IMG/VR virus record: IMGVR_UViG_2721755644_000004
Reading direction: 5' to 3' (one strand)
DNA length: 47,543 nt
DNA from: a virus
Taxonomy: Duplodnaviria; Heunggongvirae; Uroviricota; Caudoviricetes
Shown: piece after piece, positions 25,882 to 26,208 of the stretch
How the letters are laid out: every line of letters begins with the position of its first letter
Position numbering within the stretch: the stretch's first letter is position 1
Notes under the pieces: generated by a model
Database searches by the model: none
What the model was told of the DNA's origin: nothing
Seen by the model: the letters and a program-made list of their open reading frames with translations, nothing else
Position numbers and translations under genes: made by a program

Positions 25882-26208
25882 TCAAGGACGTGACGGCGTA
25901 AAGATAAATTGTCTCTTCACTCCCTGACAGGGGCGATTCTTTTCAAATCGCCATTTCGCCATGGCCTTCACCACTTCATCACGAAACAAATTATGAGGCT
26001 CTGAGCGGAGAAAAACGATCCGTGTCACAGTCCCATCAGCACCAATATCGAACTTAACCTCAACCAGCCCCTTGATATAATTTGCTGCAGCATATTCCGG
26101 ATATCGTGGATACACCGTCACTAATTGCCGGGGCTCATCAGCTTTTTGCTGCGAGCATCCCACTGCCAGGACAGATAACAGAAAAAGTAGTAAAAGGCGT
26201 CTTTTCAT
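25882..26208 (-). CDS. Outer-membrane lipoprotein with TonB C-terminal-like domain (108 aa)
   Basis: Lipobox LAVGC then S at +2; mature part YPRYPEYAAANYIKGLVEVKFDIGADGTVTRIVFLRSEPHNLFRDEVVKAMAKWRFEKNRP aligns by eye with the E. coli TonB C-terminal domain (YP..A....G.V.VKFD...DG.V.........P...F..EV..AM..WR.E...P). Confidence 0.7.
   Translation of the reverse strand: MKRRLLLLFLLSVLAVGCSQQKADEPRQLVTVYPRYPEYAAANYIKGLVEVKFDIGADGTVTRIVFLRSEPHNLFRDEVVKAMAKWRFEKNRPCQGVKRQFIFTPSRP

Follow-up and report, generated by a model that had tools for sequence, protein, structure and literature searches.

Small lipoproteins of the outer membrane are one means by which phages act on TonB-dependent receptors. 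Llp of phage T5 is described, in the passages of the literature drawn on here, as a phage outer-membrane lipoprotein that acts on FhuA from the periplasmic side, and Cor is another such lipoprotein with the same site of action; the same passages present Llp (T5) and Cor (phi80, N15, HK022) as inactivating FhuA and excluding phages. Interference at the level of TonB itself has been engineered. Over-produced periplasmic fragments of Escherichia coli TonB, which contain the C-terminal domain (CTD) without energy coupling, inhibit (iron) import via TonB-dependent transporters (Howard, Herrmann, Stratilo and Braun 2001, J Bacteriol 183:5885, as cited in PMC9841981), and a Ton-box pentapeptide is cited in the same source as inhibiting phi80 infection and colicin killing (Tuckman and Osburne 1992). 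Lambda Bor/Iss is likewise a small lipoprotein encoded by an accessory gene of the Rz-to-cos region. Here we analyze a gene of IMG/VR virus record IMGVR_UViG_2721755644_000004, a stretch of 47,543 nucleotides (hereafter the window) that is a lambdoid prophage. The gene lies on the minus strand at positions 25882-26208 and encodes a 108-aa protein, the TonB_C lipoprotein, which as a biological idea combines known kinds: a TonB-family domain in a lipoprotein-only architecture, and a phage outer-membrane lipoprotein acting on TonB-dependent receptors. Comparison across genomes shows that this gene is, by its pattern of conservation, a functional accessory gene of lambdoid prophages encoding a stand-alone TonB C-terminal domain.

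The assignment to the TonB_C family draws on score, fold and residue conservation. The protein reaches 49.2 bits against Pfam PF03544 (TonB_C; cutoff 24.6, E=7e-13, residues 33-99) and 47.4 bits against TIGR01352 (cutoff 27.1), and phmmer against the TonB chains 1u07, 2gsk_B and 2grx_C of the PDB aligns residues 23-103 with TonB 150-230 without a gap (E ~1e-14). Identity to E. coli TonB (P02929; CTD ~150-239, PDB 1U07, 1XX3, 2GSK and 2GRX) is 40%, or 32 of the 80 positions of TonB 151-230. An AlphaFold2 (AF2) model, built from an input alignment of 16 sequences, has a pLDDT above 96 over residues 30-100, and Foldseek matches it to the E. coli TonB CTD structures with an rmsd of 0.9-1.4 Å and a target-normalized TM-score (TMt) of 0.89-0.92; the rmsd is 1.0 Å to BtuB-bound TonB (2gsk_B) and 0.9 Å to FhuA-bound TonB (2grx_C). 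TolA-type domains give far poorer matches (E >0.1). The YP motif is kept as Y36-P37, the aromatic core of TonB (Y163, F180, F202, W213, Y215 and F230) as Y36, F53, F75, W86, F88 and F103, and TonB G186 as G59. The terminal strand of the model (residues 94-103) is the equivalent of the TonB beta3 strand, which in the papers describing 2GSK and 2GRX reportedly pairs with Ton boxes, and the phage protein stops at the equivalent of TonB 235. The first-pass annotation had recognized the C-terminal domain of TonB by eye and named a PF03544 search and a structure prediction as ways to check it; profile hidden Markov models and predicted fold both uphold that assignment, and the domain is complete.

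The same comparisons separate the protein from TonB proper. E. coli TonB has an N-terminal anchor (SHLS/His20 region) followed by a proline-rich spacer, whereas the phage protein has neither and carries a lipoprotein signal instead. Judged from its sequence, the 108-aa lipoprotein is not a TonB energy transducer, because its scores against the NCBIfam TonB equivalogs NF008080-NF008084 (45-69 bits) fall below their cutoffs of 265-448; these models were matched over only their last ~80 positions rather than in full length.

The reading frame comprises 108 codons and a stop, is intact, and translates as MKRRLLLLFLLSVLAVGCSQQKADEPRQLVTVYPRYPEYAAANYIKGLVEVKFDIGADGTVTRIVFLRSEPHNLFRDEVVKAMAKWRFEKNRPCQGVKRQFIFTPSRP. 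It was found exactly where the first-pass annotation had placed a 108-aa lipoprotein, with the lipobox LAVGC, Cys18 and a Ser at +2. The N-terminus, MKRRLLLLFLLSVLAVGC, matches the PROSITE PS51257-type lipobox regular expression and has the basic n-region, hydrophobic h-region and lipobox of a bacterial lipoprotein. Twelve relatives match the expression as well; at +2 they carry Ser, Ala or Thr and in no case Asp. By the +2 rule of E. coli, a Ser and not an Asp at this position predicts outer-membrane sorting. The mature form after signal-peptidase II is predicted to have 91 residues with a lipid anchor at Cys18, from which a tether of about 9 residues leads to the globular domain. A GTG-initiated reading of 126 aa is mechanically possible; PGAP and the curated annotation of phage 21 both choose the 108-aa ATG start, and indels break the upstream frame in a 72%-identical variant of the gene. 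The phage 21 annotation also places a ribosome-binding site at the position equivalent to the AGGA of this gene. A second cysteine in the mature part of this allele, Cys94 (codon 25927-25929), was dropped as a functional feature because Arg stands in its place in the 70%-identity variants P0010, P0011 and P0015 as well as in P0004.

This protein is widespread. Under accession WP_000830178.1 and the name "TonB family protein" it is present in 1225 of 5426 complete E. coli genomes (22%), including Nissle 1917 and the type strain, and 1203 of the 1225 copies are intact with a nucleotide identity of 99% or more. The 72%-identical variant is found in 415 genomes and in Stx1a-converting phages. Between the two variants dN is 0.19 and dS is 1.54, a saturating value, giving a dN/dS of 0.12 both for the whole gene and for the mature part alone; the length of 108 codons and the lipobox are kept in both. 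It is this low ratio, together with the fixed length and lipobox and the intact copies in 1203 E. coli genomes, that leads us to regard the gene as functional.

In an exhaustive HMMER search of 1.84 billion representatives, the closest relatives beyond E. coli turned out to be something other than TonB proteins. They are 107-133 aa long, each with a lipobox and one TonB_C domain, and are 35-46% identical; in a neighbor-joining (NJ) tree (no bootstrap values) such small lipoproteins group with the phage proteins and separately from the CTDs of enterobacterial TonB. A profile search found the family in Klebsiella pneumoniae, K. oxytoca, K. aerogenes, Raoultella, Citrobacter and Erwinia, all labelled "TonB family protein" and nothing else. 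The small lipoproteins of Klebsiella, Raoultella, Citrobacter, Shimwellia and Erwinia (P0037, P0040, P0042, P0209 and P0212 among them) share this architecture and clade at 35-48% identity, and all are uncharacterised. Some lie in the lysis-terminase interval of prophages, and the Shimwellia copy adjoins an Rz fragment; several others are chromosomal or on a genomic island and not in a prophage. In K. aerogenes (L098-L100, gene 5001-5342) a protein with 64% identity to P0037 is encoded on an integrase-bearing island, outside any prophage late region, and the island also holds a PerC-like regulator and a two-partner-secretion transporter of the ShlB type.

The domain assignment is already public, and only a function for the TonB_C lipoprotein would be new. 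Phage 21 encodes the identical protein as its gp73, under the annotation "TonB C-terminal domain protein", and other database labels for the 108-aa protein are "TonB fragment", "protein TonB" and "partial tonB-like membrane protein". The first-pass annotation had described it as a prophage protein without known characterisation; in this the full-text literature searches agree, having returned no published characterisation, while its domain had in fact been annotated before. No defence-system model in PADLOC-DB 2.0 matches the protein at E up to 1, and the BFVD viral structure library holds no entry with the TonB_C fold at E up to 1e-3. A separate family of unknown function, phrog_34172 (251 positions), matches like a full-length TonB, which suggests that some phages carry whole TonB-like genes.

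We infer, tentatively, that the most likely function is that of an outer-membrane-tethered, non-energised Ton-box binder that competes with TonB. The TonB_C lipoprotein has no transmembrane anchor and no proline-rich rod, and therefore lacks the means to couple to ExbB/ExbD and to supply energy. Held by its lipid at the periplasmic side of the outer membrane, the domain would be placed where the Ton boxes of TonB-dependent transporters (FhuA, BtuB, FepA, Cir and others) emerge, and it could bind these Ton boxes, or those of incoming group B colicins, through TonB-like beta-strand pairing. Because it could not pull the receptor plug, it would compete with TonB as a tethered decoy. Phages such as T1 and phi80, colicins and microcins would then enter less readily by TonB-dependent routes, and the cost would be a reduced uptake of siderophores and B12. 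The constructs of Howard et al. (2001), as they are cited, were soluble, over-expressed fragments of E. coli TonB; the phage protein is natural, diverged and predicted to be lipid-anchored. Llp and Cor, as far as the available descriptions go, are possible functional analogues that act on a single receptor each; the targets of a Ton-box binder would be many. The Pfam, PHROG and PDB matches of the TonB_C lipoprotein are of the TonB_C type only and give no sign of homology to Cor or Llp. Rather unlikely, in our estimation, is the wider proposition that the gene provides a natural dominant-negative TonB in the lambdoid prophages of some 25-30% of E. coli genomes (carriers being, among others, phage 21, Nissle 1917 and Stx1a phages), closing many TonB-dependent receptors at once to phages, group B colicins and microcins. 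This would be a broad exclusion by energy uncoupling, unlike the receptor-specific plugging by Cor and Llp, with the chromosomal relatives in Klebsiella, Raoultella and Erwinia serving as regulators of TonB-dependent uptake.

The assignment of the domain is solid. The decoy mechanism, put forward by the first-pass annotation as a block to colicins and TonB-dependent phages, is a plausible proposal that meets real objections. Ton-box binding is suggested by homology and conservation of the fold only, and TonB Q160, R158 and R166, which we take to be Ton-box or receptor contacts, are replaced by Y33, T31 and Y39; the position of TonB residue 160 varies inside the lipoprotein family as well. A lysogen that makes a general antagonist of TonB should run short of iron, yet 22% of complete E. 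coli genomes carry the gene, that of Nissle 1917 included. Homologs in Raoultella and Erwinia occupy plain chromosomal contexts: with neighboring ORFs named by eye from their translations, that of R. ornithinolytica is flanked by lacZ/lacI-like and other chromosomal ORFs, that of R. planticola lies between long non-phage ORFs, and that of Erwinia stands beside two large non-phage ORFs. Such chromosomal homologs may point to a role broader than phage exclusion. The gene points in the same direction as the late operon, and neither a promoter scan nor inspection by eye of the upstream alignment recognized a sigma-70 promoter on its strand. From gene order, the gene certainly belongs at least to the Q-dependent, antiterminated late transcript, but it may be silent in lysogens and its production limited to lytic growth, where excluding other phages brings little; since superinfection exclusion requires expression in the lysogen, the orientation and the lack of a recognized promoter weaken the exclusion reading. 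The C-terminal 200 aa of the J protein are 67% identical to lambda-type J proteins, a comparison that ties this prophage to no TonB-dependent receptor. Phage 21, Nissle 1917 and 45 of 80 IMG/VR loci have bor/iss as well, encoded on the opposite strand in the interval from Rz to the TonB_C gene. This co-occurrence corrects the first-pass remark that the gene sits where lambda carries bor, in that the gene does not replace bor.

It is possible, if doubtful, that the TonB_C fold serves another partner, such as peptidoglycan or a periplasmic or outer-membrane protein, and that the lipoprotein confers a fitness or virulence benefit on the lysogen, as bor/iss and lom do, with neither competition with TonB nor phage exclusion. 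The separation of the lipoprotein clade from the true TonB CTDs in the NJ tree would fit such a role, as would the clade's own conserved motifs, SEP(H/Q)HLFD and KWRFE.(N/D)KP, the members located elsewhere in the chromosome than in phages or on a genomic island, the loss of the three TonB residues named above, the adjacency of bor/iss in half of the loci, and carriage by iron-competitive strains such as Nissle 1917. Against this, no search indicated an alternative ligand, the closest structural matches are all TonB CTDs, receptor-bound forms included (TolA-like domains remaining above E 0.1), and the edge strand of Ton-box pairing is preserved along with the core.

Gene order bears on a second alternative. 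On the minus strand the window reads holin, lysozyme, Rz/Rz1, a 311-nt gap, the TonB_C gene, a hairpin, a 45-aa ORF, cosN, and the small and then the large terminase subunit, and the placement of the gene between Rz/Rz1 and cos in the first-pass annotation is thereby confirmed, 311 nt after the former and 764 nt before cosN (Table 1). The order endolysin, Rz/Rz1, bor or no gene, and TonB_C gene is invariant in 80 of 80 IMG/VR loci. Downstream these loci continue with the 45-aa ORF and a phage-21-type terminase or, for the 72%-identical variant, with a DUF3950 gene and either an HNH endonuclease or a terminase. The homolog of Klebsiella phage ST13-OXA48phi12.4 (41% identity) and that of a K. 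pneumoniae prophage with a Terminase_2/Terminase_6 packaging module are again co-oriented and lie after the lysis genes and before the packaging genes. The protein might accordingly be a lysis or late-programme accessory, made late only and acting on the envelope at lysis by freeing TonB-receptor bridges, modulating spanins or preventing the loss of progeny on debris. We consider this improbable. A position directly 3' of the endolysin-Rz/Rz1 genes and co-oriented with them is seen in every phage locus examined, comprising the 80 IMG/VR loci, the Stx1a-phage variant, the Klebsiella phage and the K. pneumoniae prophage. Between them these loci carry three different packaging modules, and the gene has no recognized promoter of its own; accessory genes in general, bor for instance, nevertheless tend to occupy the post-lysis region, and the chromosomal homologs are not beside lysis genes. 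The protein also matches PHROG 1267, labelled "Rz-like spanin", end to end (E=5e-43). That label is probably wrong and transferred from neighboring genes, because a Pfam scan of the protein returns TonB_C only, with no match to Rz1, and a genuine and complete Rz/Rz1 pair lies upstream in the window; the architecture also differs from that of Rz1, and at one locus (L012) a separate Pfam Rz1 gene adjoins the TonB_C homolog.

A non-functional fragment of a captured host tonB, which the labels "TonB fragment" and "partial tonB-like membrane protein" and the coverage of only the C-terminal third of TonB might bring to mind, is very hard to reconcile with a dN/dS of 0.12 over saturating dS, with a ribosome-binding site, signal peptide and lipobox of which none belongs to tonB, with a 108-aa length fixed in both variants, with an identity to E. 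coli TonB of only 40% and a place in a distinct lipoprotein clade, and with intact copies in more than 1200 genomes.

Table 1. The TonB_C lipoprotein gene and neighboring features of the window.
Feature	Position	Strand	Remarks
CDS of the 108-aa TonB_C lipoprotein, stop included	25882..26208	(-)	WP_000830178.1; phage 21 CPT_21_73
Predicted lipoprotein signal peptide MKRRLLLLFLLSVLAVG followed by C, codons 1-18	26155..26208	(-)	Lipobox LAVGC; conserved in all close relatives
Complete TonB C-terminal domain, residues 23-103	25900..26142	(-)	Aligned to E. coli TonB 150-230
Shine-Dalgarno AGGA	26215..26218	(-)	7 nt 5' of ATG; read from the sequence
Untranslated region, Rz stop to TonB_C gene	26209..26519	(-)	311 nt
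Rz i-spanin	26520..26993	(-)	311 nt 5' of the TonB_C gene
Rz1 o-spanin, embedded in Rz	26582-26767	(-)	Genuine spanin pair with Rz
Lysozyme	27475-28008	(-)	
GC-rich hairpin, 9 bp, then a T-rich tract not contiguous with the stem	25766..25790	(-)	~90 nt past the stop; -17.4 kcal/mol, z = -1.7
45-aa ORF, conserved, between TonB_C gene and cos	25538..25675	(-)	WP_000881609.1
cosN cohesive-end sequence GGGCGGCGACCT	25107..25118	(-)	764 nt 3' of the TonB_C gene; phage 21 cosQ annotation
Small terminase subunit	24414-24923	(-)	

The region upstream of the gene is composite. About 130 nt of the 311-nt gap, on the side of the gene, are specific to the TonB_C gene, and the upstream region is ~90% conserved between the variants, whose coding sequences are 72% identical. 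The Rz-proximal 110-170 nt (~26340-26510, minus strand) were found in 432 phage records at 77-95% identity by query length, and these records include lambda, BP-4795, 933W-like Stx2 phages and Ayreon, regardless of the gene that follows. The idea that the whole region forms a gene-specific regulatory module was rejected in part, since the Rz-proximal portion is present in lambda and in Stx2 phages that lack the gene; from its distribution, this portion is a generic lambdoid backbone element that does not belong to the TonB_C gene, and it may be a recombination joint or an element of the late transcript. The region gave no Rfam match, and its folding energy is not unusual (z = -0.85). Conserved GATAAT and TTGTCA motifs, seen by eye in the variant alignment, have no conserved partner hexamer. 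The 5' intergenic gaps of TonB_C genes range from 311 to about 590 nt although the phage genomes are compact elsewhere, a hint of separate regulation of the kind typical of independently regulated accessory genes. Downstream, the hairpin would be a weak terminator at best and was not picked up by the terminator scan.

The presence and absence of bor/iss indicate that bor/iss and TonB_C lipoprotein genes are gained and lost independently of each other. In this prophage bor/iss is absent (26209-26519, compared with L001 1390-1900 of phage 21 and L002 6328-7132 of Nissle 1917). Although both are small lipoprotein genes of the Rz-to-cos region, Bor/Iss differs in family and is encoded on the opposite strand, and Pfam Lambda_Bor does not match the TonB_C lipoprotein at E up to 10. 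The 45-aa ORF travels with the TonB_C gene in nearly all phage-21-type loci that reach that far; it has a longer form of 60 aa in Nissle 1917 and phage 21, and it gave no match in PADLOC, the one family library against which it was scanned.

Further features of the prophage concern its wider setting. An identical copy in strain Z0117EC0055 is integrated beside potC. The lysis cassette is split by an intact ORF of 297 aa (28045-28938, minus strand) between the holin and lysozyme genes, and for the equivalent of this interval in the identical region of another genome PGAP gives only a partial "YdfR family protein" pseudogene. The identical prophage in NZ_CP098203.1 (L003; equivalent to window ~29900-43600) also has iraM, hokD, dicB and ydfB/ydfC as further genes of accessory or toxic type, three tRNA genes (Arg, Arg and Ile) 5' of the lysis genes, and lom with a side tail-fibre gene 3' of J.

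If the TonB_C lipoprotein does act as a tethered Ton-box decoy, it would be the first natural inhibitor of the interaction between TonB and the Ton box. It would also represent a new principle of phage and colicin exclusion, one directed at the energy coupling common to all TonB-dependent receptors and not at one receptor. Such an activity would bear on phage therapy and on how sensitive E. coli is to colicins and microcins, the probiotic Nissle 1917 and Shiga-toxin-producing strains included, as well as on susceptibility to siderophore-conjugated antibiotics and the drugging of the TonB-Ton-box interface. Should the decoy mechanism prove wrong, the gene would still encode a widespread, strongly conserved and wholly uncharacterised envelope lipoprotein of the classical model phage 21.

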